Positions 1,449 through 19,228 are shown, counted from the stretch's first letter. The stretch: 64,000 nucleotides of DNA from Solidesulfovibrio sp. (GCF_029978005.1 NZ_JARKOZ010000123.1:3210-67209), one strand, 5' to 3'. Notes: a model not told the origin generated them from the sequence alone. Translations and numbers: made by a program.

Positions 1449-2128
1449 AAGATACTACTCCCCTTGCATCGAGTTGCAAAGAAAATCCCTTCAAGATCGA
1501 CTGCAAAATTGAGGGATTTTTCAAACAGTATCACTGGAGAATCCTTTGTGTCGAGGGTCTTCGCCATATTTTGTGCATATCAACAAATATAGATTCCAAC
1601 GTGCTGCTATTGTTTGGTAAGTTTATTGAGGCGGTGTGGGCTTGTCGATTGTGCAATGCTTGGCTGGTTTTTAGGCACGGCATTGACAAATGGACCTAAC
1701 TCCTCGGTGAGTCAGGAGATCGACTGAGCGGCAAGGCGTCTCCGGGTTTGGCGACGCGGATGAGCGCCTTGCAGACCTCCCGCGGCATGGGGAAGCCTCC
1801 CCCGGGAAGGAAGACCGGTGACGCAAAGACGAGTCGGGGCATCCCAAGCCAACCGGACGATTCTCCTGCCCTGCGCGGCCCCGCCCTTCGGGTGGGGGAG
1901 CCCCGGGTTCATCCCGGGCCTTGCCAGCCAATGCGAATCCCTACGAATCATGCTTCGCCCAGACTCTTTGGGATTAACTTGCCGACAAACGGCTTTTCTG
2001 CTGGCAAAATTTCAAAGGATGAGTATAACAGTTTTTGTATGGATTTCTGTTTCTCCATGCAATTGCGCAAAACAAGTATGTTTTCTGCAGTGCCATACCC
2101 AACCTTGCAGCAAGCATAGACTGTGACC

Positions 2129-3640
2129 ATGAAGAATCATCCTGAGAATGATGCCGAAAGATTGAGGGCCGTCATCGAGACTGTTGGCAGTATTATGAAC
2201 TCGATATCTGGCCCCCTGGCGCTCCTGAATTCCGATCTCGTCATCGTCAAAGCCAACGTATCGTTTTGTCATACGTTTGGCCTGCCGCAGAACAAGGCAG
2301 AAGGAACATCAATACTCGATTTTGGCCAGAGTGATGGCGAACGCAAGCGACTCAAGGAGTTATTGGATCGTGTCCTGAAAGGAAAAGCACAATTTCAGTC
2401 CATTGATGTTCCTTATTATGCCAAAGGATCTGGTCATAAAATCATCCATTTGAGTGCAAATGTCGTTCACAAAACAGAAAACTGTTTGCATCTCATCATT
2501 GTTTCTGTGGATGATTTGACGTATATAGAGCAACTTAAAGAAGACAGCCTGACAATATCCAAAAAAATTTGCTTGAGCGTTGCTGCATCACAGGAAGAAT
2601 CAGAGAAAAGACAAGCTTCTTCCGATGCGGCGTTTGCAGAAATTAAAAAGCTTAAGGATCAGCTCGAAGCCGAGCGAGCCTATTTGCAGGACGAGATCAA
2701 ACTGGAATACAATCATGACGATATTGTCGGCAAAAGCGATGCCGTCAAAAGTGTCTTCTATAAGGTCGAAATGATCGCCGGGACAGACACCAACGTCCTG
2801 GTCCTGGGCGAAACAGGCACGGGCAAGGAACTGGTGGCCCGGGCCATTCACAGCCTGAGCCTGCGCAAGGACCGCGCCCTGGTCAAAATGAACTGCGCCG
2901 CCTTGCCTTCCAATCTGATTGAAAGTGAACTTTTCGGCCATGAAAAAGGCGCTTTCACTGGCGCGTATTCCAAGCGATTGGGCCGTTTCGAGGTGGCCAA
3001 CGGCGCCACCCTGTTCCTGGATGAAATCGGCGAACTGCCCCTGGAACTCCAGCCCAAGCTGCTTCGTGTAATACAAAACGGCGAGTTCGAACGACTCGGC
3101 AGTTCCAGCACCATCAAGGTGGATGTCAGGATCATTGCCGCCACCAATCGCGATCTCGAAGAGGAAGTGCGGAAAGGCCATTTTCGCGACGACCTTTGGT
3201 ACAGACTCAATATCTTCCCCATCACGGTGCCCCCGCTTCGCGAACGCACCGAAGACATACCACTTCTTGTGGACTACTTTGTCAAAAAAATTGCCAAACG
3301 GCTTGGCAAATCAATCGAATTCATACCACTCAATGTCATGGACGCCTTGCAGAACTATCACTGGCCAGGAAACATCCGTGAACTGGAAAATGTCCTTGAG
3401 CGCGGCGTCATCAATTCTTCAGGACCGAAACTGCGACTCATTGATGAGCTCAAGAAACCCTTTAAATCCCTGCCCAGCAACCAGAGGACCCTGGAAGCGG
3501 TCGAACGGGAATACATACTGCTGGTGCTTGCCCAGACCAACTGGAAAGTCGGCGGCAAGGACAGCGCCGCCGAAATACTTGGACTCGACAGAAGCACCTT
3601 GCGCGCCCGTATGCGCAAGCTCAATATCCATAAGCCATGA
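2129..3640 (+). CDS. PAS-domain sigma54-dependent transcriptional activator (FhlA/NtrC-type bEBP)
   Basis: N-terminal PAS-like region, Walker A GETGTGKE, ESELFGHEKGAFTGA, LFLDEIGE, C-terminal Fis-type HTH AAEILGLDRSTLRARM. Confidence 0.93.
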   Translation: MKNHPENDAERLRAVIETVGSIMNSISGPLALLNSDLVIVKANVSFCHTFGLPQNKAEGTSILDFGQSDGERKRLKELLDRVLKGKAQFQSIDVPYYAKGSGHKIIHLSANVVHKTENCLHLIIVSVDDLTYIEQLKEDSLTISKKICLSVAASQEESEKRQASSDAAFAEIKKLKDQLEAERAYLQDEIKLEYNHDDIVGKSDAVKSVFYKVEMIAGTDTNVLVLGETGTGKELVARAIHSLSLRKDRALVKMNCAALPSNLIESELFGHEKGAFTGAYSKRLGRFEVANGATLFLDEIGELPLELQPKLLRVIQNGEFERLGSSSTIKVDVRIIAATNRDLEEEVRKGHFRDDLWYRLNIFPITVPPLRERTEDIPLLVDYFVKKIAKRLGKSIEFIPLNVMDALQNYHWPGNIRELENVLERGVINSSGPKLRLIDELKKPFKSLPSNQRTLEAVEREYILLVLAQTNWKVGGKDSAAEILGLDRSTLRARMRKLNIHKP

Positions 3641-3899
3641 CGCCGCATCCTCCCGTCCTTCCGGTTCCTTGCCCTGGCCCGTGCCGACGCGCGCACGTGA
3701 TGGTTGCAACGTCGCCTGTCGCGGCGTCGCCCTGTCTTGGGGCCCCCACCCGCAGGCAGCGCCACCTTGCCGTTGGGGCACACCATGACACGCCCCCCTG
3801 GCCCGCCCGACGCTGATCCTGCCGGACCGTCGGCATTTGGCGCAAAGGCGGCAAAGATCCTGCGCGTTCGGCGGGCCATCAGAAGAAAGGACAAAGACA

Positions 3900-5509
3900 A
3901 TGAAAAGCGCAGCAAACCTTATGAAGCGCATCCGTTCGATGCCGCTCCGCGGGCTTGCCGGGGCGCTGGCCGCAGCCGTCTGCCTGACCGGGGCCTTTTT
4001 CCACACTCCGGCCGCCCTGGCCGCCACAACGCCCTTCACCCTGGAAAATGTGGAGCAGGCCGCCAGGGAACTGGCCGCGGTTCCTTTCCAGGCGCCGCCG
4101 CCCATTCCGGAAGCCCTGCGCAACCTCGATTATGACGCCTGGCGGAAAATCCGCTTCAGGCCCGACCACGCCTTCTGGGCCAAAAGCGCCTCGCCCTACC
4201 AGCTCCAGTTCTTTCATCCGGGCTTTCTCTACGACCGCACCGTCAAGCTGCATGTCGTCGACGGCAACACGGTCGTCTCCCTGCCCGTGACCAAGGACAT
4301 GTTCGATTACAGCCAGGTCAAGGAACTTCCGGAAAAGCTTCCGGCGGAAATCGGGGCTGCCGGCTTCCGCGTCCATACCGCCATCAATACCAAGGCCTAT
4401 CTCGACGAGTTCGTCGTCTTCCTGGGCGCCTCCTACTTCCGCGCCGTGGCCAAGGGTCAGGTCTACGGCCTGTCGGCCCGGGGACTGGCGATCAACACCG
4501 CCGAAGCCGTGGGCGAGGAGTTCCCCTGGTTCCGCGAATTCTGGATCGTCAAGCCGACCCCGGGCAACGCCGCCAAAGGCCTGACCGTCTACGCCCTCCT
4601 GGACAGCCCCAGCCTGGCCGGGGCCTTTGCCTTCACCATCATGCCCGGCCGGGAAACCGTCATGGACGTCGCCTCCCGGATCTACCTGCGGACTCCGGTC
4701 AAGAAGCTCGGCATCGCCCCCCTGACCAGCATGTTCCTGTATGGCGAAAATTCCCTGCCGAGCGCCGCATGGACTGGCGGCCCGAGGTGCATGATTTCGA
4801 CGGCCTGCTGCTCCATTTCGCAAGCGGCGAATGGCTCTGACGACCGGCCCAGAATCCCGCCAATCTCCTGGTCGGCAGTTTTGAAGCGGATGCCGTCAAA
4901 GGCTTCGGGCTGCTCCATCGCGACACGGATTTCAACAGCTACCAGGATACCGAGGCCCGCTACGAGAAGCGCCCGAGCCTTTGGATCGAGCCGCGCGGCA
5001 ACTGGGGAGCGGGGCGGGTGGAGATGGTGCTGATCCCGTCCGAGCAGGAAATCCACGACAATGTCGTGGCCTATTTCAGCCCCAAGGAACAGGCTGCGCC
5101 AGGGACAGCCATGCGTTTTGACTACCGCATGCGCTGGCTGGACGCCCCCGGCGGACTGCCGCCCGGGGTGCGGACCACAGCCACCCGGTCCTCCCAGCCC
5201 GACAAGAACAGCCGCCAGTTTGTCATTGACTTCGCGGGCGGCAAGCTGCCCGCCCTCAAGGCGGACGCCAAGGCCGAAGCGGTCGTCAGCGTCGGCCCGG
5301 GAGCCACGCTCCTTGAGCAGCAGTGTTTCCGCAATCCCGTCACCGGCGGCTTTCGCTTGACATTTAAAATCGGTTTCGACGGCGGCTCCACCTTGCAAGG
5401 CATCCTGCCGGAAAAACGCGGTCCCATCGAGCTGCGGGCGTTTTTGAAGTTCGAAGACAAAAGCGTCAGCGAGACCTGGAGCTACGCCGTAACGCCGGGG
5501 AAATCATGA
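3900..5509 (+). pseudogene. opgG: Periplasmic glucan biosynthesis protein G (OpgG/MdoG), frameshifted with a premature stop
   Basis: Motifs FLGASYFRAV, YGLSARGLA, EFPWFREFWI, PLTSMFLYGE. Frameshift at ~4760, then DWRPEVHDFDGLL...GEWL*RP (TGA 4838-4840), continuing through RPSLWIEP and EIHDNVVA to SETWSY. Confidence 0.9.
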
Positions 5510-7968
5510 GCCGGGGCGCGATTCCCCCGCCCGACCAGGCAAAGCCCTGGCTCGACGGACTGGGGGCGCGGCTGGTCGCCTATGCGCGCCGGCTCCCCCT
5601 GTCCGAGGCGGCCCGGCTGGAGACGGCCCTGGACACCCTGGGCAGGCTCCCGGTCGGACCCGGCGATCCCGACACGGCGATCCGGCTGGCCATGACCGAT
5701 CTGATGACGCGCCTTGACGCCCCGCGTCCCGATCCCGAACTGCGTCCCACGCCGGTCCTTTTGCGTACGCCCATGGCCCCGGAAGCCATGGGGCTGCGGG
5801 TCTGGCGCAAGGCCGTGGCCAAGGCCGTGGGCAAGCCGCCTCCTCGGGAGGGACATGCCCCCAAAAGCTCCACGGCGCCCCGCGCAGCTTCCAACCAGGC
5901 CTGGAGCGCCGTCGCCGGCCGTCGCCGCGTCGTGCTCGCCTTTCTCGTTTTCCTGCCGACCGCGTTCGCGGTTCTGCGCATGGCCTCGGTCCTGCCCCAC
6001 GAAGGCGGCACGGTGCTGGAAAAAATGCTGCTGGCGGTCTTCGCCATGCTCTTTGCCTGGATTTCCGTCGGGTTCTGGACGGCCATGGCCGGCTTCGCCA
6101 CCCTGGTCAAACGCTTCGACCGCTTTGCCGTCACCCGGCCCCGGCCATCGGATATGCCGCCCCGGCCGGATGCGCGCACGGCCATCGTGTTCCCGGTCTA
6201 CGGCGAGGACATGGACCGGGTCACGGCCGGCATCGAAGCCGTCTACCGCTCCCTCGAGCGCGACGCCGACATCGGCCGGTACGATTTCTTCATCTTGAGC
6301 GACACCCGTGACCCGGAAGCCTGGGCCGAGGAGGAAGTGGCTTGGGCCGCACTGCGGGAGCGTCTGGACGCCCCGGAGCGCGTCTTCTACCGCCGTCGCC
6401 GGGTCAACACCAAGATGAAAAGCGGCAACATCGCGGACTTCTGCCGCCGCTTCGGCGCGCACTACATCTACATGCTGGTCATGGACGCCGACAGCGTCAT
6501 GAGCGGCGAAACCATCGCGCGCATGGTGGCCGTCATGGAAGCCCGGCGGGAAGTGGGCATCCTGCAGTCAGTCCCGGCCATTGTCGGGCGCGAGACCTTT
6601 CTGGCCAGACTGCAGCAGTTCGCCAGCCACCTCTACGGGCCCATGTTCTCGGCGGGCCTGGGCTTTTGGCTCCTGGGCGACGCCCAATTCTGGGGCCACA
6701 ACGCGCTCATTCGCATCCGTCCCTTCATGCGCCACTGCGCCCTGCCCCGGCTGTCCGGCAAGCCGCCCCTTGGCGGCGAAATATCCAGCCACGACTTCGT
6801 CGAGACGGCGCTTATGCGCCGGGCCGGCTGGAGCGTCTGGCTGGCCTATGATCTGCCCGGGAGCTACGAGGAAGCGCCGCCCAACCTGCTGGCCGAACTG
6901 GCCCGGGACCGGCGGTGGTGCAAGGGCAACATGCAGCATCTGCGGCTGGTCTTCACCCGCGGCTTCATTCCGGTCCACCGGGCCTTGTTCCTAAACGGCG
7001 TCATGGCCTATGGTTCGGCCCTGTTGTGGTTCCTTTTCCTGGCCGTCTCCACGGCCGAGGCCATCATCGAGTCCCTGACGCCGCCCACCTATTTTCCGCC
7101 AACGCGCACGCTTTTTCCCGACTGGCCGATCTGGGAGCCGTGGTGGGCCTTGAGCCTGCTGGCCACCACCGGCGTGCTGCTTTTCCTGCCAAAGGCGTTT
7201 GCCGCCCTGCTCGTCCTGTTCAAGGGCCGTCTCCGGTTGTTCGGCGGCTTCTGGCGACTGCTTGGCAGCATGGCCATCGAGGTGTTCGTTTCCTCGCTCC
7301 TGGCTCCCATCCGGATGCTTTTCCACAGCAAGTTCGTCAGCATCACTCTGCTTGGCCGGGAGACCACCTGGGGCCGGCAGGCGCGCGACGATCGCTCGAC
7401 GGCCTGGTCCGACGCCATCCGCTTCCATCTCGGCGGCACGCTTTTGGCCGCGCTGTGGGCCGGCACGCTCTTCCTGTACAACCGGGAATTCTTCTGGTGG
7501 GTGTGCCCCGTTTTCGGGCCGCTGCTCCTGGCCGTTCCCCTGTCCGTGGTCACGAGCCTGCCAAGCCTTGGCCGGTGGCTCAAACGCCTCGGGCTGCTGC
7601 TTATTCCCGAAGAAGTGGACCCGCCGCGCGAACTGGCGGAGCTGGCGGCCTTTCATGAGCGAAACGCCCTGGCTGCCAGGCCCCTGGGCATTCCCCGGGA
7701 ACGCGGCGTGGCCCTGGCCGTGGTGGACCCGGCCGCCTGCGGCAGGCGTCTGGCCCTGCTTGGCCGACCGTCCCGGACGGCGCGCGTTGACGCCACGGTG
7801 CGCCAGGCGTTGGTGGACAAGGCCCTGGACCTTGGCCCGGCCGGCCTCACCCGAGCGGAAAAATCGGCCCTGCTCGAGGATCCCGCCGCCTTGACGGCCG
7901 TCCACCGCGCGCTGTGGCGGCTTCCCGAGCATGCCTTGCGGGAGCGGTGGTTTGCGAGTTGGCGCTAA
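5506..7968 (+). CDS. opgH: Glucans biosynthesis glucosyltransferase H (GT2)
   Basis: 820 aa; KSGNIADFCRRFG, MDADSVM, QFWGHNA, SHDFVE, RDRRWCKGN motifs; overlaps the opgG stop. Confidence 0.95.
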   Translation: MSRGAIPPPDQAKPWLDGLGARLVAYARRLPLSEAARLETALDTLGRLPVGPGDPDTAIRLAMTDLMTRLDAPRPDPELRPTPVLLRTPMAPEAMGLRVWRKAVAKAVGKPPPREGHAPKSSTAPRAASNQAWSAVAGRRRVVLAFLVFLPTAFAVLRMASVLPHEGGTVLEKMLLAVFAMLFAWISVGFWTAMAGFATLVKRFDRFAVTRPRPSDMPPRPDARTAIVFPVYGEDMDRVTAGIEAVYRSLERDADIGRYDFFILSDTRDPEAWAEEEVAWAALRERLDAPERVFYRRRRVNTKMKSGNIADFCRRFGAHYIYMLVMDADSVMSGETIARMVAVMEARREVGILQSVPAIVGRETFLARLQQFASHLYGPMFSAGLGFWLLGDAQFWGHNALIRIRPFMRHCALPRLSGKPPLGGEISSHDFVETALMRRAGWSVWLAYDLPGSYEEAPPNLLAELARDRRWCKGNMQHLRLVFTRGFIPVHRALFLNGVMAYGSALLWFLFLAVSTAEAIIESLTPPTYFPPTRTLFPDWPIWEPWWALSLLATTGVLLFLPKAFAALLVLFKGRLRLFGGFWRLLGSMAIEVFVSSLLAPIRMLFHSKFVSITLLGRETTWGRQARDDRSTAWSDAIRFHLGGTLLAALWAGTLFLYNREFFWWVCPVFGPLLLAVPLSVVTSLPSLGRWLKRLGLLLIPEEVDPPRELAELAAFHERNALAARPLGIPRERGVALAVVDPAACGRRLALLGRPSRTARVDATVRQALVDKALDLGPAGLTRAEKSALLEDPAALTAVHRALWRLPEHALRERWFASWR

Positions 7969-8358
7969 GTCTCTTGCCCGGCTCCTCCGGCAGCACCGCC
8001 CCAAACGATCGCCAAGAGCGGCGACGCCCTGGCTGTTTGACGCCTTCTCCCTCCCTTGACCTGACGGCGCAAGCCCGGTCCGGCCGGACAGGTTCTTCCT
8101 GCGCCGTTTGCTTCCTCTTGCCCGAAGTGCGGTTGAACAAGCGCTGACATCCCGCCGCGCCGGTCCGTACATGGCCTTTGCCTCGCAGCGGCATCCGGCC
8201 CCGGATCACGAGAGCCGCCTTGTCGGGTTCATCCGGCGTTCGCCCGCAGCAGGTCTTCGGAGTCACGGACGGGATGGAAGGCCAGCCCGACTGCGCCATT
8301 CTCCTTTTCGTCGAGGCCTCAGTGTCCCCTGCCACTGGACGCGCCTTTATATGCGTCG

Positions 8359-8393
8359 GCGGTCATATATGACCTTTGGTCAAATATGGCCGC
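8359..8393. promoter_or_regulatory. 35-bp imperfect palindrome, copy 1 (candidate sigma54 enhancer/UAS)
   Basis: GCGGTCATATATGACC-TTT-GGTCAAATATGGCCGC; same arms and 3-nt spacer as the copy at 16424-16458. Confidence 0.6.
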
Positions 8394-8487
8394 ATTCCCG
8401 TGGCAGACCGTGGAGAAGCTCGGCAAGTTGATCTTAATTGTCTCGACAAAACAGGGGGCTGTGCATTTATGAAAATAAAAAAGGACG

Positions 8488-8503
8488 TGGCACGCTAATT
8501 GTA
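8488..8503 (+). promoter_or_regulatory. sigma54 -24/-12 promoter candidate upstream of the BON gene
   Basis: TGGCACG-CTAA-TTGTA versus consensus TGGCACG-N4-TTGC(A/T). Confidence 0.65.
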
Positions 8504-8569
8504 TTGAGTTTATCGAAAGCAGCGAATGGTGCTGTTGAAGAGTTGCACGGCTTCTGGGGATGCTGGCGC

Positions 8570-9630
8570 ATGAAACATAAGACTTGCACTGGCAGTTTGG
8601 TAGTGGCCGCAATAATTGTTGCCATGTCGAGTGGCAGATCGTTTGCCTCAGGCGAGGATGATCATATTGTTGCAATGGCTAAGCAGTCATTCGTCTTTGA
8701 AACATATCTTGGGAACGACGGCATTACTGTGACTGCAAACGACGGGGTGGCACCCTGACCGGGACCGTCTCCGATGAGTCCGACAAGACGCTGGCCAAGG
8801 AAATCGTGATTGGCCTGCCCGGAGTCAAAAGCGTCGACAACCAATTGGCGCTGCGCGGAGATGGCCAAGACTCTTATTCGGAAGCATGGCTCATTACGAA
8901 AGTAAAAGCAACACTGCTGTATCATCGTAGCATCAACGACACAGCCACCGAGGTGTCCGCAGCCGATGGCGTAGTGTCTTTGTGTGTCAAAGCCACAAGC
9001 ACGGAGAAAAAGGATTTGACGACAGAATATGCCATGGATGTAGACGGATTCAAAAGAGTTCTCAATGAAATGGCCGTGAAAACGGCTCAGGAAATCCAAG
9101 ATAAGCAGATAAAGGGTGACAAACTGATCGGAGAAAAGACCATGGGCAGGAGATGGATGTTATGAACGGAGCGATCGACGACGCCTTCATCAGTGCCCTG
9201 GTCAAGACGACCCTGCTTTTGCACCGCTCGACCAACGCTCTCAACGCAACAGTGAATACGAAAGACGGCGTGGTCGCAGTGGAGGCAAGGTGCTCAATGC
9301 CGCGGAAAAAGATTTGGCGACGAAACTGGTGCGCGACGTCCGCGGCGTCAGGAGGGTGGTGAACAATATGACCGTCGCCGGGAGGACCAAGACGGCCGAG
9401 ATCGGCAGCAGCGGCAACTCGTCCGATGAGGCGGCCATCGCCCCAACGTCATGGCAGGGAGCATTGGCGGCCCGGCGCGCAAAGTGTCCCGGTCACCCTC
9501 CGGTTGCCAAGGAGCAGTCGTGCGACCTGGCTGCATCGTGGGCTCAAGCTTGGCCGTGAAGCAAGCAGTGAATGAGGCGGCCGCAGTGAAAGGTGTCAAG
9601 TCGGTAACAAACAATCTGATGACGAGATAG
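8570..9630 (+). pseudogene. Multi-BON-domain (OsmY-like) protein, several frameshifts
   Basis: Signal-like N-terminus, then repeated BON motifs (ITVTANDGV..TLTGTV, LPGVKSVDNQL, WLITKVKATLL, DDAFISALVKTTLL, VRGVRRVVNNM, VKGVKSVTNNL) spread over different frames (shifts near 8750, 9150, 9290). Confidence 0.8.
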
Positions 9631-9665
9631 CGATTCAGCTATAACGGAAATACGGGGAAAACACC

Positions 9666-9824
9666 ATGTCAATAGGAACTATTCTTCTTATTGTCCTTAT
9701 CCTTGTTCTTCTTGGTATGATACCAGCATGGCCGCATAGCCGGTCGTGGGGTTATGGCCCAAGCGGGATCGTAGGCACAATAATAATTGTTCTTCTGATA
9801 TTGCTCTTGATGGGCAAGCTTTAG
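9666..9824 (+). CDS. DUF3309 family small membrane protein
   Basis: MSIGTILLIVLILVLLGMIPAWPHSRSWGYGPSGIVGTIIIVLLILLLMGKL (52 aa, below the ORF-track cutoff); typical PxWPHSRxWGYxPSG motif. Confidence 0.9.
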   Translation: MSIGTILLIVLILVLLGMIPAWPHSRSWGYGPSGIVGTIIIVLLILLLMGKL

Positions 9825-9921
9825 GCGTCCTCAGATGCGACAGCTTGGATTCGCAAGAATGCAGGCTGGTGTTTATAAATAATGGAACAGCTCAACCAAA
9901 ATACATTTCAGGAGCGTATTC

Positions 9922-10101
9922 ATGAAGTCCAGCACAAAAAACATTGCTGAGGGCAAGTTGCACCAGGCCAAGGGCAAGGTCAAGGAGGTCGTCGGGGCTG
10001 CCATAAACAATCACGACCTGGAGATCGAGGGGAAGGGCGAAAATCTCGATGGCAAGATACAGGAAAAGATCGGCAAAATCGAGAAAGACATCGAGAAATA
10101 G
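9922..10101 (+). CDS. csbD: CsbD family stress protein
   Basis: MKSSTKNIAEGKLHQAKGKVKEVVGAAINNHDLEIEGKGENLDGKIQEKIG... (59 aa), RBS GGAG upstream. Confidence 0.9.
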   Translation: MKSSTKNIAEGKLHQAKGKVKEVVGAAINNHDLEIEGKGENLDGKIQEKIGKIEKDIEK

Positions 10102-10258
10102 ACCAGCCGTCAGGGCCGTGCCCCCTCCCTTGGATGGCCGTAAGCCGCCTGGAGGAGCACGGCCCGCAACGCCGTCGAAGGGGGAGCCGGGGATAGTCCT
10201 GGCCCCGGGACGAAACTTCCTCTGGCAAGGCGGCGCTTCGCATCCCATCGGCAACGCC

Positions 10259-11140
10259 ATGAACGCACACAGCCCGCCGCTGATCCTGGCACTCGCGACA
10301 ATCCTGCTTGCGACGCCAACTCCGGGGTTTGCGCAAGTCAGAACGGATCGGTCACGACATGAGAGCAGGGGAAACGACGATACGACAACGCCCGTCCGCG
10401 TCCAGCGTATCGGCAGGACAGATATATACCATTTTGAAAACGCTGCATCCGTCTATTTCTTCGAGGCAAAAATGGTCATTAACGCCGACGGTGCGCCCAA
10501 AGCCTATCACAGGGACACGGGGCGCGGCGTCGACCATCTCGCCAACGCGGGCAGCACGGGCAACTGGTGGGGAATCGTCACCGATACGGGCGATTCTGGC
10601 GGCAACCCCATCCTGCAAGGCGCAGGCGATCCCGCTCCTGGTTTCTATGTCTCGGGAACTGCCCTGCAGGACAGCACCAAGTCCAACGGCGACCAGAACC
10701 GATATGTGAATTCAGAAACAGTTCCATTCTATGTTCTGCCAAGAAGAATACATCTTCCGGTAAAAATAGGCGATTTCGGATTTGTGATCAACCAAAGAAA
10801 CAACGCCAGTTCCGGATGCATCTTCGCCGATATCGGCCCTGAAGACCGCATCGGCGAGGGCTCCATCGCTCTGGCCAAAGCCCTAGGCATCCAGAGCGAC
10901 CCGAAAGCTAAAGGTTCAGAGGATACGTATGTCTATGTCATCTTCTCCAACAGTGCCATGGGTTGGCCGCTTGATCTGGAGTTCATCAACGTACACGCCA
11001 AGGCGCTGTTCGAAAAATGGGGAGGTATGGAGCGATTGCAACAGGTCCTGCCTCTGGCCGTGATGTGTGCAGGCAAGCGTTACAAATGGAAGAATTACGA
11101 TAGTGTGCATTCAAAGCCGAGACAGTATGTTGATCGATAG
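10259..11140 (+). CDS. Secreted glycoside hydrolase family 75 (chitosanase-like) protein
   Basis: Signal peptide; INADGAP, ETVPFYVLP, IFADIGP..RIGEGSIALA motifs characteristic of GH75. Confidence 0.7.
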   Translation: MNAHSPPLILALATILLATPTPGFAQVRTDRSRHESRGNDDTTTPVRVQRIGRTDIYHFENAASVYFFEAKMVINADGAPKAYHRDTGRGVDHLANAGSTGNWWGIVTDTGDSGGNPILQGAGDPAPGFYVSGTALQDSTKSNGDQNRYVNSETVPFYVLPRRIHLPVKIGDFGFVINQRNNASSGCIFADIGPEDRIGEGSIALAKALGIQSDPKAKGSEDTYVYVIFSNSAMGWPLDLEFINVHAKALFEKWGGMERLQQVLPLAVMCAGKRYKWKNYDSVHSKPRQYVDR

Positions 11141-11277
11141 ATATTTGGCCTGAGAAGATCGTCCAATGCATTTATAAATTCTATGCGAGCTTGAGGCGCG
11201 ATGCAAACAGAAAATATGGTGCAAGAATATTGAACGGACAATACGGAACACTCTAACATTTAAATATGGAGGAAGCT

Positions 11278-11661
11278 ATGATAAAGCAAAACTTCTTGTT
11301 ACCCATGTTTATAGCTGCATTCATTTTCATCGGGGCCGACGCCGGCTTTGCGCAAAAGCAAGCGGACCATCCCGCTCCGGATGTCGACGGCGAGATCTGG
11401 ATGAAATCGTCCGACCTGGAAAAGAAGGCGTTCCTGTATGGAGCGGGAAGCGCCCTTGTCCTGGAATACCATCTCCGTCAGAAGCACGGGCAAGATGCAT
11501 CAAGGCTCGTCAAAGGATGGGTTGACGGACTCAAGGACATGAGTTGGTCGGATTTGTCCAATCATGTCGACGACTATTACAGGCAGAATCCAGACAAGAT
11601 GCAGAGGAATGTGTTCGATGTCATCTGGCATGAAGTCATAGCCAAAAACCAGAAGAACTGA
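11278..11661 (+). CDS. Hypothetical exported protein
   Basis: RBS GGAGGA, signal peptide ending AFA/GFA, coding-like composition. Confidence 0.7.
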   Translation: MIKQNFLLPMFIAAFIFIGADAGFAQKQADHPAPDVDGEIWMKSSDLEKKAFLYGAGSALVLEYHLRQKHGQDASRLVKGWVDGLKDMSWSDLSNHVDDYYRQNPDKMQRNVFDVIWHEVIAKNQKN

Positions 11662-11671
11662 GGACACCATC

Positions 11672-12028
11672 ATGCAATCCATAGCGATCTCGACACTTAT
11701 TCTCCTGTTTCTGAGTCTCTCCGCCTGTACGCGCATGACGCCCACCCAGCAGGGGGCCCTCTCCGGTGCGGCCATTGGCGCTGGCGCGGGCGTTGGCATC
11801 AGCGCTTTGGCCGGCGGCAACCTTGGGGTCGGAGCGTTGGTCGGCGGCGCACTGGGCGGCGTTGCCGGAGGACTCTACGGCAACGAACAGGAACAACGCG
11901 ACAGAGCGGCGCAAAATGTCCGTAACCAAGATAAAGCCAACAGCATCAAGAAGCACCAGCGGGATATGCGTAAAAGACAAATCAACCAATTCAACAAACA
12001 AGAAAACAACAGCGCCAAGAATTATTGA
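11672..12028 (+). CDS. Glycine-zipper lipoprotein
   Basis: Lipobox LSAC, GALSGAAIGAGAG...GALVGGALGGVAGG glycine zipper. Confidence 0.8.
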   Translation: MQSIAISTLILLFLSLSACTRMTPTQQGALSGAAIGAGAGVGISALAGGNLGVGALVGGALGGVAGGLYGNEQEQRDRAAQNVRNQDKANSIKKHQRDMRKRQINQFNKQENNSAKNY

Positions 12029-12239
12029 TTCCCGCTGCGTCGCATTTGAGCTGGATTCGCCCGCTCTCCCGCGGCCTGCCTGTAATACCGCCGGAAACGG
12101 GCCCAGCCTCCGCTTGGTCATGCGCTGAGAGAGCGGGGCATTCGATGTTGAAAAAAATGGATATATCTTGAGAATTCTCCGCTCTCGGGCATATCGACCA
12201 ACATGACCTCGTCGCCCGAGACAGCCATGGGGGGGCGCT

Positions 12240-14276
12240 TCAGCCCCGGGCTGCCTCGGCCGCGACCTCGGTCATCACCCAGCAGCGCAGGACCTCGGCC
12301 ACGCTCCAGGCCTGGGCGATGCAGCCTCGGGCCAGATAGGGCGGCTCGGCATCGAACACCTCGTTGATGGATCCGACGCAGGCCGCGTCCAGATTGCTCA
12401 TGAGACCGGTCAGAAATCCCCGGGCCTCGCCTTGCCGACCCGGATGGAGCTTGAGCCAGGCCTCCACGTAGGGGCCGATGAGCCAGGCCCAGACCGTGCC
12501 CTGGTGGTAGGCGGCGTCCCTGGAACGCAGATCGCCGTAATACTTGGCCTTGTAATCCGGATGCCCGGGAGCCAGGGAGCGCAGCCCCACGGGCGTCAGC
12601 AGTTCCCTGGTCACCACCTCCATCACCGACGGCCACCGGGACGCGTCCAGAACGGGATGATCCAGGGAAATGGCCAGCACCTGATTGGGACGGCAGGCCG
12701 CGTCGTCGCGACCGTCCTCGCCGTCGACCACGTCGTAGAGATAGCCGCCCGATGCGTGCCAGAAGCGGGCGTTGAACGCGTCCCGGACCTGGTCGGCCCG
12801 CTGGCCGATGTCCTCGGCGGCCGGGGCGTCGCCGGATTGCGTGAGCCAGCCCTGCAGCAGACGCAGGGCGTTGTACCACAAGGCGTTTATTTCCACGGCC
12901 TTGCCGCGTCTGGGCGTGACCACCCAGTCATCCACTTTGGCGTCCATCCAGGTCAGCTGGTAGCCCGGGGCTCCCTGGCGCAGCAGACCGTCGCCAGGGT
13001 CCATGCCGATGCCGAAATCCGTGCCCCTCATGTGCTTTTCGATGATGTCCCGAAATTTGGGAAGCAACAGCCGCAAGGTGGCCTGGTCATTGGTCGCGCC
13101 CAGGTAGCGGTGGAAGGCGTGGAAAAACCACAAGGTCGCGTCGGCGGTATGATACAGCCCGTCCTTCTCTCCTTCGGGAAACATGTTGGGAATAAGTCCG
13201 TTTCGGACGTATTCGGCGAAAGTCCGCAAAATCCAGCCGGCTTCGTTGATGCGCCCGGTCAGCAGGGTCAGCCCTTCGAGGCTGATCATGGTGTCGCGGC
13301 CCCAATCGGTGAACCAGTGATACCCGGCGATAATCGTGCGCACGTCGTCGCCGGCGGCCTTGGCCCGCACGACGGCCTGGATGCGTCCCACCGGCGTGAT
13401 CAGAAACTGGTCCGCCGCCAGGACCAACTGAGCGGCAGGGCCGCTTTTCAGGGCCGGCGCGGCCAGACGCAGCAGGCTGTCGCGGCGTTCGGACTCGGAC
13501 CGGTAGGCCGACTCCGGGGACTGGGCCTGGATGGCTTCCCAGCTTTCCGTGGAGGCCACCAGGGTGGTCTCCTGGCCCAGCGTCAGATCGGTGCGGAAGT
13601 AGCCGGGGCTCCACAGCGACCCCTTCCAGGCGTAGCCCCGGTTGCGCTCCGTGCGGTAGGGAATGGCCGCCGTCACCTTGCCGTCGCAGGTAAACGCTGT
13701 GGCTTGGCCGTGCAGCTGCAGGCGCAGGACGGGATACTGCGGCTCCCCGGTGATCTCGAACTGGTCTTTGTAGACCGACAGCCGATAGGCGGCCGAGGGC
13801 TCCGGGCAGACCAGGGCGTCGTGGGAACGAAACTGCATGGCCGGGCGCAGGTTCAACCGCAACATTCCCTCGCCGCGCAGCAGTCGGTAGGTCACATGAA
13901 CGGTATTTTGCTGGTAGGGCATGAGCAGCCGCTTTTCCAGGACAAAACCGTCGATTTCATAGAGCCAGACCGGCAGGCCGTGGTCCAGGCGAAAGGCGGT
14001 CAGAGGGTAGACGTTTTCCGGGGCGACGCCGGCCAGCTCTTCCGCGCCGGTATGGACCACCCGGCGGCAGGGCAGGCGCAGGCGCTCGGACAGGCCGTTG
14101 AGCATCATCACCCGGCCCAGGGGATTGGGCAGGGCCGCCACCAGCAGGCCGTGATAGCGCCGGGTGATGGTTCCGGTCACGGTTCCCGAGGCATAGCCGC
14201 CAAGGCCGTTGGTGACCAGCCATTCCCGCAGCAGATGCGGGTCCTGGCCGGGGGTCGTCTCATGGTGGTCAGTCAT
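12240..14276 (-). CDS. Amylo-alpha-1,6-glucosidase / glycogen debranching enzyme (GH133-like)
   Basis: EWLVTNGLGGYASGT, RRYHGLL, IAGYHWFTDWGRDTMISLEG, LTWMDAKV, AYHQGTVW, QAWSVAE. The start is coupled to the treZ stop. Confidence 0.92.
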   Translation of the reverse strand: MTDHHETTPGQDPHLLREWLVTNGLGGYASGTVTGTITRRYHGLLVAALPNPLGRVMMLNGLSERLRLPCRRVVHTGAEELAGVAPENVYPLTAFRLDHGLPVWLYEIDGFVLEKRLLMPYQQNTVHVTYRLLRGEGMLRLNLRPAMQFRSHDALVCPEPSAAYRLSVYKDQFEITGEPQYPVLRLQLHGQATAFTCDGKVTAAIPYRTERNRGYAWKGSLWSPGYFRTDLTLGQETTLVASTESWEAIQAQSPESAYRSESERRDSLLRLAAPALKSGPAAQLVLAADQFLITPVGRIQAVVRAKAAGDDVRTIIAGYHWFTDWGRDTMISLEGLTLLTGRINEAGWILRTFAEYVRNGLIPNMFPEGEKDGLYHTADATLWFFHAFHRYLGATNDQATLRLLLPKFRDIIEKHMRGTDFGIGMDPGDGLLRQGAPGYQLTWMDAKVDDWVVTPRRGKAVEINALWYNALRLLQGWLTQSGDAPAAEDIGQRADQVRDAFNARFWHASGGYLYDVVDGEDGRDDAACRPNQVLAISLDHPVLDASRWPSVMEVVTRELLTPVGLRSLAPGHPDYKAKYYGDLRSRDAAYHQGTVWAWLIGPYVEAWLKLHPGRQGEARGFLTGLMSNLDAACVGSINEVFDAEPPYLARGCIAQAWSVAEVLRCWVMTEVAAEAARG

Positions 14277-16164
14277 CCTTACGTTTCTCCCAGGGGGCCG
14301 GGCGCAGGGCCACGGCGGCATGGCCCGGAATGCGCCAGTTGTCCTTGGTGTCGAGAGGGGGCGTCCCGGTGCCGCCATAGCGCGGGTCCTCGCTCGACCA
14401 CAGAATCTGCCAGGCGTGGCCGACCGGCGGAGCCAGCAGCGGCTCCGGGGCCGAGATCAGGTGCAGATCCCGCCCGAGATTGACCAGCAGCAGCCGGTCG
14501 TCGTCGCCCTCGCCAAAAAACCGCAGCAGCAGACATTCGTCCGCCAAGACCGAGCCGTCCAGGCCGCCTGGTTTCTGGGCGGCAAAGACGGTGTCTTCAC
14601 GGCGTAGCCGCAGCAGATCCTTGTGCAGATCGTAGATCGGGCGGTTACGCTCGCGCTCGCTGAAATCCAGCTTGCAGTGGGCAAAGACCTCCGGATCGCC
14701 GGGATCCGGTGCGTGGGCCCGCATCTCCCGGGTGGCCAGGCTGCGAAATTGCTGCAATGCCTTGGCCCGCCCTTTCCGGACCAGCCGGGCCAGTTCCGGT
14801 TCGTGGTCGGAAAAGAAATGAAAGGGGGCCGAAGCGCCGAATTCCTGTCCCTGGAAGAGCATGGGAGTGCACGGGGCCAGCAGCAACAGCGCGGTCATGG
14901 CCCGCAGACGGCCGGGACTGGTCAGAAACTGGATCCGTTCGCCGCGTCCGGAATTGGCGATCTGGTCGTGATTTTGGATATAAACGACGAAGTGCGCCGG
15001 CGCCAGATGCAGGCACGGCGTGCCGCGACGCTGTTTCTGCCAGGCATAGCGTTGTCCCTGGTAGAGATAGCCGTATTTGAGCATGGACAGAAATTCCTGC
15101 GCTCTCCCCGCATAGTCCGAATAATAGGCTTCGCTGCGCCCGGTCAGGGCGACCGTGGCGGCGTGGTGGAAATCGTCGTTCCACAGGCCGTCCAGGCCGC
15201 TGCCGCCCTCTGCGGCCGGGCGTGCCAGATTTGCGTCCTGGGATTCGTTTTCAGCCACGACAATGGTCTTGCGACCGCCTGCCGCCTGCCGCACCCGCCT
15301 CACTATGGCGGTTACGATGTATTCCGGCGAATCGTCGAAGATCTGCTGGGTGGCGTCCAGGCGCAGGCCGTCGATGTGGTATTCCGCGACCCAATAAGCG
15401 GCGTTGATCAGGAAAAATTCCCGCACCGGTCCGGAATGTTCGCCATCGAAATTGATGGCCTGCCCCCATTCGTTTTCATACTTGCTGGTGAAAAAGTCGG
15501 CCGCGAACTCGCTGAGATAATTCCCGCTTGGCCCCACATGGTTATAGACCACGTCCAGGATCACTCCCAGGCCGCAGTGATGGGCCTCGTCCACGAAACG
15601 GCGCAAATCATCCGGTTCCCCGTAGATTCCAACCGGTGCAAAGAGACCGACTCCGTCGTAGCCCCAGCCGAAATGGCCGGGAAAATCCGCCACCGGCATG
15701 AGTTCGACGACAGTGACGCCGCACGCCGCCAGTTCGGCCAGTTCCCGCCCGGCCGCAGCCCAGGTGCCTTCCTGGGTGAACGTCCCGATGTGCATTTCAT
15801 AGATGATCTGGCCTTCGATGCCGACTCCGGGCCAGTGGCCGTCACGCCAGGGAAAGGCGGCTGGATCCACCACCTGGGACGGCCCATGGGGACCGTCCGG
15901 CTGGAAGCGCGAGGCCGGATCGGGAAAGGCGTCCTGGCCGCTCAAGCGGTAGCGATACCGGGTGCCGGCGGCGGCCTGGGGCGCCAGGACGGCGTGGTAC
16001 CCGTCGTCCTGCAGGGCCATGGGGATTTCCCTCGTCGCGCCCGGCCCGGACTCGAGGACAACGGCAACCGACCGATGCCGGGGAGCCCAAAGGCGAAAAT
16101 GGACCCCGCCGCCGGGCAGGATTTCGGCTCCGATGGGGAAGCGCCGTGTTGGCATAACGTTCAT
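14269..16164 (-). CDS. treZ: Malto-oligosyltrehalose trehalohydrolase (GH13)
   Basis: FRLWAP, DPASRFQPDGPHG, YEMHIGTFT, WGYDGV, DVVYNH, DGLRLDATQ, VAE, QNHDQ, PMLFQGQE. Confidence 0.9.
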   Translation of the reverse strand: MNVMPTRRFPIGAEILPGGGVHFRLWAPRHRSVAVVLESGPGATREIPMALQDDGYHAVLAPQAAAGTRYRYRLSGQDAFPDPASRFQPDGPHGPSQVVDPAAFPWRDGHWPGVGIEGQIIYEMHIGTFTQEGTWAAAGRELAELAACGVTVVELMPVADFPGHFGWGYDGVGLFAPVGIYGEPDDLRRFVDEAHHCGLGVILDVVYNHVGPSGNYLSEFAADFFTSKYENEWGQAINFDGEHSGPVREFFLINAAYWVAEYHIDGLRLDATQQIFDDSPEYIVTAIVRRVRQAAGGRKTIVVAENESQDANLARPAAEGGSGLDGLWNDDFHHAATVALTGRSEAYYSDYAGRAQEFLSMLKYGYLYQGQRYAWQKQRRGTPCLHLAPAHFVVYIQNHDQIANSGRGERIQFLTSPGRLRAMTALLLLAPCTPMLFQGQEFGASAPFHFFSDHEPELARLVRKGRAKALQQFRSLATREMRAHAPDPGDPEVFAHCKLDFSERERNRPIYDLHKDLLRLRREDTVFAAQKPGGLDGSVLADECLLLRFFGEGDDDRLLLVNLGRDLHLISAPEPLLAPPVGHAWQILWSSEDPRYGGTGTPPLDTKDNWRIPGHAAVALRPAPWEKRKDD

Positions 16165-16417
16165 GTAGTTGCTCGCAGGTTTTTCCCAGCCCCCTAAAGC
16201 GACATAACAACAGGGCTGGCTCTTTGGATCAACACCATTATTACAGGCCAGAGTTCCAAAGCGTCAATGCGGATTTTGCAAAAGTAGGGGCCTGTCAGCC
16301 CTGTCTTCGGCCGCATCCCCCCAGGGAAGGGGGCAAACTCTTGAGTCTACGCCAATATTCCCATTTCTTGCAACGCAAATATCGCCAGCCAGTATTTTCA
16401 AAACGCTTGAGAGCAGA

Positions 16418-16464
16418 CAATCTGCGGTCATATATCACCAATGGTGATATATGACCGCAGATTG
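16418..16464. promoter_or_regulatory. Perfect inverted repeat (23-bp arms, 1-nt centre); copy 2 of the 35-bp palindrome
   Basis: caatctgcggtcatatatcacca-a-tggtgatatatgaccgcagattg. Confidence 0.75.
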
Positions 16465-16555
16465 GGACCGCTTATTGGAGGCTTCCGTTCCTGGTGATAT
16501 AAAATTAATTAATGATATAGATAGAATAATCCTGACTGACCAGAACGCTTTTGCA

Positions 16556-16571
16556 TGGCACGGAACATGAA
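16556..16571 (+). promoter_or_regulatory. sigma54-like promoter candidate upstream of the PRC-barrel gene
   Basis: TGGCACG-GAAC-ATGAA; perfect -24 half, degenerate -12 half. Confidence 0.4.
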
Positions 16572-16755
16572 ATGAAGAAAGAGTGTTTTACGAAATCCAA
16601 GTGTGTCCATGGGAACGGGCGTCCTCCTGGACTGGCTCCGGACAAAAGGCGCCGGCCTCCAGGACATCTGCTCCAGCTAGAGGCCAGCGGCTTTGGGCGG
16701 CAGTGGCCTGCAGCGGGATGCCACTTGGATACTAACTGTAACCGAGGAGTTCTTC

Positions 16756-17157
16756 ATGTCTGTTGCGCCTAAGATTCTTATCGTTGCCATGGCACTGTCC
16801 CTGAGCCTGATTGCCGGTGCGGCCCTTGCGCAAACACCGCCGGTCGTCGGCACCATCGGTATCACCAGTGAGGAAAGCAAACTGCTCGCCAAGGGCTGGA
16901 GCATCAAGAAGGACATCCTGGGCAAGGACGTCTACAACGATGCCAATGCAAAAGTCGGTGTTGTCGAGGACATCGTTGTGACGCCAGACAAGGCAATGTC
17001 TTATGCCATCGTCAGCACCGGCGGCTTCCTGGGCATGGCCAAGCATGACGTCGTCATCCCGGTCAACCAGTTCAAGATAAAGGATGCCCGCGTCTCTTTG
17101 CCAGGAGCCACCAAGGAATCCGTCAAGGCGATGCCAGAATTCAAGTACGCCGACTAA
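16756..17157 (+). CDS. PRC-barrel domain exported protein
   Basis: Signal peptide; ILGKDVYNDANAKVGVVEDIVV...YAIVSTGGFLGM..HDVVIP; RBS GAGGAG. Confidence 0.9.
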   Translation: MSVAPKILIVAMALSLSLIAGAALAQTPPVVGTIGITSEESKLLAKGWSIKKDILGKDVYNDANAKVGVVEDIVVTPDKAMSYAIVSTGGFLGMAKHDVVIPVNQFKIKDARVSLPGATKESVKAMPEFKYAD

Positions 17158-17370
17158 CCGTTTCACCAGATGCCCCTGGCCAGCGTCCAGCCAGGGGCAT
17201 CTTGCTGGGATGTTGCAACGACGTCCAAAACAGGCTGCTCTTTTTACGCAACACCTGCCTTTACGACATGCCCCATGCGCACTGACAATCAGGCCATGGC
17301 ATACGCGGATTCCTCAAGTCGAATGAGTCCGAAAAGGATGACAACCATCTGCCCGTTCAGGGGAATGCTT

Positions 17371-17934
17371 ATGACTACCAGCTTGACCAGTACACTGGCC
17401 AGAATCCTGCTTATCGCTTCGTTGCTGCTGCTCGGCACGGCATGCCAGCCCCAAAACAGACGGTACGAAACCTCTTTCCGTCAGGAGGGGTACGTTCCAG
17501 AATCAACCAGCGTCAGGAGATTTGTCCGAACCGATTCACAACAAGACTATTACGTCGATAGCAGGGGCGGAATGCACCTCGTGACCAGACAGGTGGCGCA
17601 ACCGATCAGTCCGAACGGCATTCTTTACTATGTTGAAGACGACGATCGACCCTATTCCCTTGATGAGAACCAGAGGCTCTACACTCGGGACCAGTCCGGT
17701 CGCATGTATTATATCGAAGACGTAAGGCCTGGGCGGAGCGTTGAATCCCAAGTCATTGTCTACGAAAGGGCGCCCTACAGGGATATGATGCCGGCTTATT
17801 CGCAAGAGTCATGCGCCAGCCAGTACGAAAAGTGCATGTCCGGCTGCCAAGGCTTGTCTCGCCGGGAAGCGTATACGTACCAGACATGCGTCAATAATTG
17901 CGAGACCATCAGAAGCGGCTGCAGCGGACGCTAG
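17371..17934 (+). CDS. Hypothetical lipoprotein with a C-terminal six-Cys motif
   Basis: Lipobox GTAC; C-terminal CX6CX3C...CX3CX6C. Confidence 0.7.
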   Translation: MTTSLTSTLARILLIASLLLLGTACQPQNRRYETSFRQEGYVPESTSVRRFVRTDSQQDYYVDSRGGMHLVTRQVAQPISPNGILYYVEDDDRPYSLDENQRLYTRDQSGRMYYIEDVRPGRSVESQVIVYERAPYRDMMPAYSQESCASQYEKCMSGCQGLSRREAYTYQTCVNNCETIRSGCSGR

Positions 17935-17947
17935 GTCGCGGAGATAT

Positions 17948-18800
17948 TTATCGTAGCCCGCAAATCCTCCGGCTCCCCTGGCCAATGGTCGTTGCCAGCC
18001 GCGGCTGGATGCGACGCGGCAGAGGGGACGAAAGGATGGCGGCTGACGCCAAGAGCCGGAGTGAAGGTGGTAGCAGGCGCTCAAGAAAACCGCTTGGCGT
18101 GGGTGGCGGAGGCATGGACCTCGTCGGCGATCTGGGCGTTGTCGTCAAGGCCGAGCAGCAGCAGACACTGGTGCTCGACCGGCAAAACGGCAAGCAGCGC
18201 CTGATCCAGCAGGCCCACGCCGCAGGAGACCGGCAGCGCCTTCCTGGGGTCGGCCGCCAGCCAGGCGGCGCAAAACGTGCCGGGACTCCCGGACGTCGTC
18301 GACTCCTTCCTCGTCGCAGTCGCTGGACTCGGCCCACTCCAGGCCGATGCTGCCCGGAAACGCGTCGCATATGTCACGCGCGTCGTGGCCTGGATGAGCG
18401 ACGGGGCATTCTTTTCGGCCTCCTCGAAAAGTCCCCGGTACGAACTCGCCAGCCGGACATGCACGCCGTTGGCCGTGGTCATGGTGGGCAGCCTGATGCC
18501 AAATCCCTCGGCCTCGCCGCGGGCCATGAGGGCGTGGGCGGCGAGCCGGGCGGCCTCGGTCTTGCCCGCGGCGTTCGTATTCACGAAGAGGCAACGGCTT
18601 GGCCCGCTTTCCGATCAGGCCACCGCCCCGGCGTGTGGGCCGGGAGCGGCGTCGGGGCGCATTCCTTCTCGATATGCGGCAGCAGCTCGTGAAGGCCGCG
18701 CTCACGTCGCGCCGCCTCGGACAGCGGATTCCACATGGAGCCCAGTCGCCTGGTGTGCACGTTCTCGTGGCTCGTCTGGGGGGAAATGAAACGGCCGGAC
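17948..18800 (-). pseudogene. cas3: Relic of a CRISPR-associated helicase Cas3 (type I, I-E-like), frameshifted and truncated
   Basis: Minus strand gives GKTEAARLAAHALMARGEAEG (Walker A, ~18560), LPTMTTANG (motif Ia), CAAWLAADPRKAL...GVGLLDQALLAVLPVEHQCLLLLGL, IADEVHA (DEVH, 18114-18125) and AAILSSPLP (degenerate motif III), across several frames. Confidence 0.75.
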
Positions 18801-18835
18801 GACTGGCCGTCGCCCGGCCTCGGGACGTCGGAAGG

Positions 18836-19228
18836 TCAGAAGATGTTGTTGGTGTTGACCCAGCCATACATGTTGAGGCTCGGCACATGCACCAAGGCCC
18901 AGCCTTCGAGGTCGTTGACCAGGATCTCAACCGGGGTTCCGAGCGGCATCTTGGCCAGGACGCCGCAATACAGCCCTTCGCAGTTGCGAAGGGGCAGGTC
19001 GGTCATGCTGGCCCGGGCCGTCGCCTGAGGGGTCAACGTCCAGGCCTCGGCCAATATGGCCTGCTGCTGCGAACTCATGACCATGGGCGGGGTCCCCATG
19101 GGAGTCCTCGCTGGATTTTGCTGCATGCTTTGCGGCGCCATCTGGGCCTGGGCCACGGCGGTGAAAGCAACGATCAAGGCCGACAAGAGCATAAGGGCAA
19201 ACATCAGAAAGACGAGGCGGGTATTCAT
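18836..19228 (-). CDS. Exported SH3 (type 3) domain protein
   Basis: Signal peptide; LPLRNCEGLYCGVLAKMPLGTPVEILVNDLEGWALVHV...GWV. Confidence 0.75.
   Translation of the reverse strand: MNTRLVFLMFALMLLSALIVAFTAVAQAQMAPQSMQQNPARTPMGTPPMVMSSQQQAILAEAWTLTPQATARASMTDLPLRNCEGLYCGVLAKMPLGTPVEILVNDLEGWALVHVPSLNMYGWVNTNNIF

Follow-up and report, generated by a model that had tools for sequence, protein, structure and literature searches.

Tandem palindromes upstream of predicted sigma-54 promoters point to a PAS-containing activator and a two-operon stress-type regulon in Solidesulfovibrio

A 64,000-nucleotide stretch of a Solidesulfovibrio sp. genome (GCF_029978005.1, NZ_JARKOZ010000123.1:3210-67209; hereafter the window) contains two long palindromes, each followed by a predicted sigma-54 promoter and an operon of small stress- or envelope-type genes. 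Based on the comparisons presented here, we conclude that both palindromes are very probably upstream activating sequences (UASs) of the bacterial enhancer-binding protein (bEBP) encoded at 2123-3640 of the same window, and that they drive the two sigma-54 promoters. The genome is a 4.8-Mb metagenome-assembled genome of 67.5% GC whose source DNA was a wastewater metagenome. It holds one rpoN gene (a single Sigma54_DBD match, 203 bits) and six genes of the HU/IHF family (IHF, integration host factor), and none of its proteins scored above the curated cut-off for RpoS.

The window sequence confirmed UAS 1 as a 35-bp palindrome at 8359-8393 and UAS 2 as its counterpart at 16424-16458. Each is composed of a pair of abutting 14-bp palindromes of the GGTCATATATGACC type, spaced by 17 bp. 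In UAS 1 (8361-8391) a perfect copy of GGTCATATATGACC at 8361-8374 is followed by a second 14-mer with 2 mismatches at 8378-8391, and in UAS 2 (16418-16464) the two 14-mers (16426-16439 and 16443-16456) are embedded in a larger palindrome with perfect 23-nt arms (16418-16440 and 16442-16464). The centres of UAS 1 and UAS 2 lie at about -138 and -141 relative to the predicted transcript starts. An outer inverted repeat also surrounds UAS 1 (8330-8339 and 8396-8405, TGCCACTGGA and TCCCGTGGCA, 9 of 10 positions complementary); it is partially conserved, in the relative G023 only.

When up to 2 mismatches were allowed, the 14-mer produced 8 strand-matches in the window against 0.25 expected from shuffled sequence. 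In the whole genome, a mismatch search and a position weight matrix (PWM) scan agreed on exactly two tandem pairs, and a control palindrome gave none. The PWM scan found no further members of the regulon in the genome above 12 bits, while the training sites scored at least 34 bits. Additionally, two relatives retain UAS 1 in the orthologous intergenic region, and UAS 2 is likewise conserved in two.

Downstream of the palindromes a TGGCACG element follows, starting at 8488 for UAS 1 (112 bp from the palindrome centre) and at 16556 for UAS 2 (115 bp), distances within the range of about 80-150 bp expected of a bEBP site. In both cases the -24 element is canonical (GG within TGGCAC). The predicted promoter P1 (8488-8503, plus strand) reads TGGCACG-CTAA-TTGTA, with 1 mismatch and a predicted start near 8514; P2 (16556-16571, plus strand) reads TGGCACG-GAAC-ATGAA, with 2 mismatches and a predicted start near 16582. 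The spacing from -24 to -12 is correct and the G at -13 is retained in both, and the -12 region of P2 is weak. The P1 box is kept in relatives at 114-116 bp from the pair centre, and the P2 box is found at 114-115 bp in two relatives.

The spacers between palindrome and promoter have a GC content of 46% (site 1) and 38% (site 2), falling to 37% and 28% in the last 60 bp, in a genome of far higher GC. Spacer 1 contains, at 8449-8461 on the plus strand (-40 from the T of TGGCAC), the position homologous to the IHF box of the wider family described below; it has 3 mismatches to WATCAANNNNTTR, and its core CAAAACAG is conserved in two relatives. The homologous position of spacer 2 (16516-16528, plus strand) falls within the 28% GC tract and also has 3 mismatches, and in the orthologous sites of relatives it shows 1-2 mismatches as counted on aligned sequences. 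Alignments of the intergenic regions, with three Solidesulfovibrio genomes per site, reveal the same three conserved islands in each case: the palindrome pair, the -24/-12 box and, midway along the spacer, a block that covers the IHF-box position. The DNA around these islands has otherwise diverged. An Rfam scan of the leaders and spacers returned nothing relevant. A leader block just 3' of P2 (16586-16612, beginning GTGTTTTACGAAATCCAAG) is conserved in the G014 ortholog and has no Rfam match. We considered whether UAS 2 might drive the divergent treZ-like gene and rejected this, as no -24/-12 box faces that side.

The original prediction, which was made from the sequence of the window, had placed the two palindromes and the TGGCACG elements exactly where we find them. 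It had also noted the 23-bp arms and described the spacers as AT-rich, which the sequence bears out. Its gene calls (PAS-bEBP, BON, DUF3309, CsbD and PRC-barrel) were likewise correct as judged by Pfam matches.

The proposed activator gene (2123-3640, plus strand, with an ATG at 2129) encodes, by Pfam and translation, a one-component PAS-AAA+-HTH sigma-54 activator (HTH, helix-turn-helix). The protein begins with a PAS sensor at about residues 20-135, followed by a coiled-coil linker, an AAA+ domain with GAFTGA and a Fis-type HTH (about residues 440-505). Pfam matches were obtained for Sigma54_activat (PF00158, 1.2e-71), HTH_8 (2e-08), AAA_lid_14 and PAS_4, and no receiver domain is present. 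The translation displays the Walker A and B motifs and the loop (GETGTGKE, LFLDEIGE and GAFTGA) together with the HTH. Among the named bEBP equivalogs of NCBIfam (FhlA, NifA, NorR, NtrC, PspF, ZraR and others) the activator falls below every cut-off, with FhlA scoring highest (413 bits, cut-off 830). The recognition helix, RSTLRARMRKL, is essentially invariant across the activator family, and no paralog in the genome shares it.

Evidence for the pairing of activator and site comes from other genomes. Within the genus, activator orthologs occur in 2 of 24 other genomes, G023 and G024 (75% and 89% identity), and tandem pairs occur in these two and in one 67%-complete genome, besides the genome studied here. 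Orthologs outside the genus share 58-79% identity and are found in many genomes of Desulfobacterales, Desulfatiglandales, Syntrophales and Desulfobulbales. From this wider family we sampled 80 loci around activator orthologs, comprising 1.24 Mb of flanking DNA. Tandem pairs, 90 in total, were present in 67 of the 80 loci, and three control palindromes were never found. In 58 of 78 loci a pair lies no more than 900 bp after the stop codon of the activator gene, with a median of about 100 bp. Furthermore, in an even draw of 400 genomes of the phylum, pairs occurred in 5 (control 0); each of the 5 encodes a related PAS-bEBP, and in 4 the gene for it has a pair within a few kb on its contig. Two phylogenetically distant genomes (G245:C3:1831122-1863248 and G303:C1:193907-235240) each contain five sites clustered over 32-41 kb beside a PAS-bEBP gene, as multi-promoter islands of the same regulon.

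No conserved gene neighbour was found 5' of the activator among the 78 loci. Two candidate partners were rejected. A linkage of kaiC-kaiB to the activator did not hold, since in 5 carrier genomes KaiB was encoded on other contigs, about 3 Mb away, or not found, and a CheB/CheR-PAS gene with a PAS-kinase gene was present in only a few of the 78 loci.

The geometry of the sites is equally constrained across the family. The sequence TGGCAY-N5-TTGN occurs 105-128 bp from the pair centre in 81 of 94 pairs, almost always at 114-118 bp with a mode of 116, and the distance from the start of the proximal palindrome to the T of TGGCAC is 114 or 115 bp in 59 of the 81. The IHF consensus WATCAANNNNTTR (at most 1 mismatch) is found at -41/-40 in 36 of 81 spacers, compared with at most 6 at any other single position. 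The -12 box of the family is TTGA in 60% of cases, TTGC in 20% and TTGG in 20%. The family displays the co-occurrence of the sites with orthologs of the bEBP and with predicted sigma-54 promoters, which the original prediction had put forward as a check on itself.

From this linkage and geometry we infer a mechanism in which binding, looping and sigma-54 dependence would follow the pattern of enhancer-driven promoters. Dimers of the activator would bind each 14-bp palindrome through the Fis-type HTH, placing two abutting dimers on each site. A signal read or relayed by the N-terminal PAS domain would then lead the dimers to assemble an active AAA+ ring. The AT-rich spacer, presumably bent by IHF in most relatives, would loop this ring onto the sigma-54 RNA polymerase about 115 bp downstream, and ATP hydrolysis would open the -24/-12 promoter. 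At the first site this would switch on the operon encoding BON (where intact), DUF3309, CsbD, exported proteins and a glycine-zipper lipoprotein, and at the second the operon encoding a PRC-barrel protein and a 254-residue exported protein.

Several observations weigh against this reading for the genome at hand. The -12 boxes lack the canonical GC, with TTGT at P1 and ATGA at P2 in place of TTGC, and the other sigma-54-like sites of the genome are mostly TTGC, unlike P1 and P2. The IHF-box positions are degenerate in both window spacers. The genome encodes about 52 bEBPs, and a distance of 4.7 kb separates the activator gene from site 1, and one of 12.8 kb from site 2; with so many candidates, the assignment of the activator rests on comparative linkage and not on proximity alone. 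In addition, the BON gene is broken into five frame segments by four frameshifts in about 1 kb, and of the 57 PAS positions with at least 90% conservation among the other orthologs, 32 are changed in this activator, so that this lineage may be losing or rewiring the circuit. Comparison across genomes nevertheless supports every part of the original prediction. Its sigma-54 promoters have the canonical -24 elements, the single rpoN gene and the fixed geometry of the family in their favour, but not the -12 boxes found here. The IHF consensus that would go with its bendable spacer recurs at a fixed position in the family but is degenerate in the window. Its sigma-54/PAS-bEBP stress regulon gains comparative linkage and stress-type genes, but is not confined to this genome.

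The most serious alternative follows from these points and holds that the architecture, though real in the family, survives here only as a remnant that is decaying and for the most part without function. We consider this unlikely. The broken BON sequence is identical in contigs assembled independently from two runs, and a tblastn search with the intact 354-residue ortholog of S. magneticus Maddingley passes through frames 3, 2, 1, 3 and 2. A deletion also ends close to UAS 1. Between the activator gene and UAS 1, the relatives G023 and G024 have two further genes, for a CheB/CheR-PAS protein and a PAS histidine kinase, and the window keeps a remnant of about 150 bp of this block (8165-8306). 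Because only these roughly 45 codons are left, we conclude that about 4.3 kb was deleted, with the deletion ending about 55 bp upstream of UAS 1. Moreover, ABM, the characteristic lead gene elsewhere in the family, is missing from the two operons of the window, as are most of the other gene families of the regulon. On the other hand, each UAS pair is nearly perfect, and three or four Solidesulfovibrio genomes keep the -24/-12 boxes amid diverged intergenic DNA; that UASs and -24 boxes persist among relatives speaks for continuing selection on the circuit, although it may be partly decayed. The AAA+ domain retains 158 of 163 family-conserved residues (5 differ) and the HTH 26 of 27 (1 differs), and DUF3309, CsbD and the other downstream open reading frames (ORFs) are intact. 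The PAS changes are shared with G023 and are therefore old, which is compatible with an input that has been changed rather than lost.

In the relatives, the block that the window has lost consists of a 1006-residue CheB-CheR-PAS_10-PAS protein and a 405-residue PAS histidine kinase (L027:11539-15773; L026:7445-11844), and a paralogous CheB/CheR-PAS and kinase pair is found on contig C54 of the genome studied here. The PAS domain of the activator family carries a strongly conserved signature, …IYDLGN.QW.IP.LRELLE… (L032-L110), that resembles the PAS behind CheB/CheR fusions and is lost in the Solidesulfovibrio activators. The ortholog of Desulfovibrio sp. DV (L053:9995-11510) shares 89% identity over residues 161-505 and 45% over residues 1-165, the latter in a different reading frame, so that its sensor is either mosaic or frameshifted.

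A second possibility is that the palindromes are operators of a different DNA-binding protein, such as a repressor of sigma-70 promoters, and that TGGCACG is coincidental. The non-canonical -12 boxes and the large number of regulators in the genome would fit such an arrangement, yet we judge it very improbable. Across 67 of 80 loci the activator is the only gene that travels with the site, and the gene neighbours upstream of it are not conserved. The near-constant placement of TGGCAY-N5-TTGN relative to 81 of 94 pairs cannot be put down to chance. A simple consensus scan of both spacers and leaders, from each UAS to the first gene behind it, also turned up no promoter of the sigma-70 type.

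A third, that the palindromes are the ends of a mobile unit spanning roughly 8.4-16.5 kb, had been raised with the original prediction and draws on the presence of two similar long palindromes 8 kb apart in a patchwork of low-GC and high-GC DNA whose gene order varies among relatives, but it can be set aside almost entirely: each site has its own promoter and both units face the same way; the intervening DNA includes native high-GC genes of the glgX/treZ type on the opposite strand; in G023 one contig carries site 1 with its operon and another carries site 2 with its operon and conserved flanks; no target duplication was found, nor any transposase family in Pfam scans of the window; the same sites occur singly beside the activator gene in dozens of genomes; and no relative was seen that lacks exactly 8.36-16.46 kb with a duplicated target at the junction.

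Sequence comparison indicates that the window copy is a reduced version of a module widespread in Desulfobacterales-type bacteria, whose arrangement is found again in about a hundred genomes of sulfate reducers. The activator gene and both operons form low-GC patches (47-58%) in the genome, and together with the patchy distribution in the genus (3-4 of 25 genomes) this suggests that the copy was probably acquired horizontally. In a quick tree the Solidesulfovibrio trio shares a long stem that arises from a basal polytomy, a position that does not point to any donor. Among the close relatives there has been rearrangement: the block of glgX, treZ, UAS 2 and PRC sits elsewhere in G023 and G024 (on another contig in G023). 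In both of these genomes operon 1 is followed by DNA with a short match to window 18895-19032, where the window itself has 12026-18895.

The genes downstream of the family sites are of stress or envelope types and fall into a few recurrent groups. ABM-domain proteins were found behind 37 sites, usually as the first gene after the activator, followed by BON lipoproteins (16 sites), a B12-binding radical SAM/DUF4070 group (13 sites) and a 92-residue protein that matched no family (9 sites). FtsH, HflK-like SPFH, HflC-like SPFH and sll1863-family stress proteins were each found behind 6 sites, CsbD behind 5, DUF5670 behind 4 and a third SPFH cluster behind 3, and further small membrane proteins were also present. 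The theme of the regulon thus appears to be stress or envelope/membrane proteostasis, the label 'general stress' being drawn from gene families. The regulon of the window comprises two operons and has only BON and CsbD in common with the wider set.

Operon 1 (8571-12028, plus strand) comprises BON, DUF3309 and CsbD genes and three further genes for exported proteins or lipoproteins. Its first gene (8571-9630, plus strand; Pfam BON) is the broken gene discussed above and would encode an exported OsmY-like protein with four BON domains. Next are a DUF3309 small membrane protein (9666-9824, plus strand; Pfam 1.2e-22) and a CsbD-like protein (9922-10101, plus strand; Pfam 1.9e-15), both intact; the latter was the sole CsbD homolog found in the genome with that query. 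The remaining genes, likewise on the plus strand, encode an exported protein with a weak GH75-like match (ORF 10049-11140), an exported 131-residue protein (11266-11661) and a glycine-zipper lipoprotein (11672-12028), and over 10049-12028 the gene order and content are the same in two relatives. The public runs of the source metagenome are of DNA. A single wastewater run carries an RNA-Seq label but is probably of DNA as well; from operon 1 it contained no more than two contigs of 150 nt, which match the DUF3309 and CsbD genes exactly (window 9690-9838 and 9954-10103).

Operon 2 (16756-17934, plus strand) follows a leader of about 175 nt and encodes an exported PRC-barrel protein (16756-17157, plus strand; Pfam PRC 1.5e-11) and an exported 254-residue protein that matched no family (17170-17934, plus strand). 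Both genes are conserved behind the same site in two relatives. Between the operons lie the high-GC glgX-like and treZ-like genes (12240-16164, minus strand). Between the activator and UAS 1, a split mdoG and mdoH occupy 3837-7968 on the plus strand; a probable frameshift divides mdoG into an ORF at 3837-5033, which covers the N-terminal part of the MdoG profile, and a second, overlapping one at 5018-5509, which covers the C-terminal part.

The proposed circuit is of the same kind as the classical units of bEBP and sigma-54, such as NtrC-glnAp2, NifA-nifH, DctD and XylR-Pu. Like these it would combine dyad sites about 140 bp 5' of the start with a -24/-12 promoter, a spacer that can bend or bind IHF, and an AAA+ activator with GAFTGA and a Fis-type HTH. 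In contrast to the classical units, where about three helical turns separate the dimer sites, those here abut (17 bp centre to centre), the spacing to the promoter is constant within 2 bp in either direction across orders, the -12 box of the family is mostly TTGA and not TTGC, and the targets are small stress or envelope proteins instead of genes of nitrogen or carbon metabolism. The psp system of Escherichia coli is another point of reference, in which the sigma-54 activator PspF acts from tandem upstream sites with an IHF site to express small membrane-stress proteins. PspF has no sensor domain and is restrained by PspA, whereas the activator described here has a PAS domain and scores 301 bits against the NCBIfam pspF cut-off of 443; no PspA family was found among the annotated gene clusters behind the family sites. 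BON/OsmY, CsbD and small membrane proteins are otherwise typical members of RpoS, SigB or EcfG regulons. Unlike in those systems, control here would be exerted by an activator with sigma-54 and not by a dedicated stress sigma factor.

Among characterized proteins of the Desulfovibrionaceae, the closest case is OrpR of D. vulgaris Hildenborough, also a one-component PAS-AAA+-HTH protein (PMC8359166). OrpR recognizes the motif GGGCGYRTTTTGCGCCC, and its PAS domain has three conserved cysteines for an Fe-S cluster (PMC8359166). The two systems are alike in having palindromic sites 5' of two operons (the orp operons in D. vulgaris), in the use of sigma-54 and IHF, which is predicted in the present case, and in a tiny regulon of exactly two operons, but they differ in motif (GGTCATATATGACC here) and in target genes. 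Sensing through an OrpR-like Fe-S cluster was rejected, as the PAS domain of the present family has no conserved cysteine. The sigma-54 regulome of D. vulgaris lists stress-linked regulons for two-component activators (PMC4641369), among them the response regulator DVU3305 under 'general stress response' (Kazakov 2015, PMC4641369). DVU3305 is similarly a sigma-54-dependent activator tied to stress-type genes in a sulfate reducer; unlike it, the present activator has a PAS domain and no receiver domain. The relatives sampled outside the genus, a set that did not include D. vulgaris itself, gave matches of only 43-55% identity, limited to the AAA+ and HTH regions. In the literature we found no description of the motif, or of sigma-54 control of BON/CsbD genes in sulfate reducers. 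Taken together, the regulon appears not to have been described before, although its mechanism is of a conventional kind.

A broader proposal is possible, though we regard it as doubtful: that the PAS activator and sigma-54 act as a master switch for general or envelope stress in Desulfobacterota that lack RpoS, as a counterpart of RpoS, SigB and EcfG, with a distinct subclass of promoter. If this were true, the abutting dimer sites, the helically phased spacing, constant at about 115 bp from order to order, and the -12 box lacking C may confer particular switching properties. Sulfate reducers and their relatives encode dozens of sigma-54 activators whose targets are mostly not known. For these anaerobes, a cassette of activator, enhancer and promoter in front of BON, CsbD, FtsH and HflK/C provides a testable candidate for how protective proteins are switched on. 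The more than 80 promoters with near-invariant spacing and an unusual -12 box form a natural data set for the constraints on enhancer geometry. In the Solidesulfovibrio genome itself, two operons of otherwise unannotated small proteins gain a candidate regulator and a likely mode of regulation, within a module that arrived, or survives, as low-GC islands in a high-GC chromosome.

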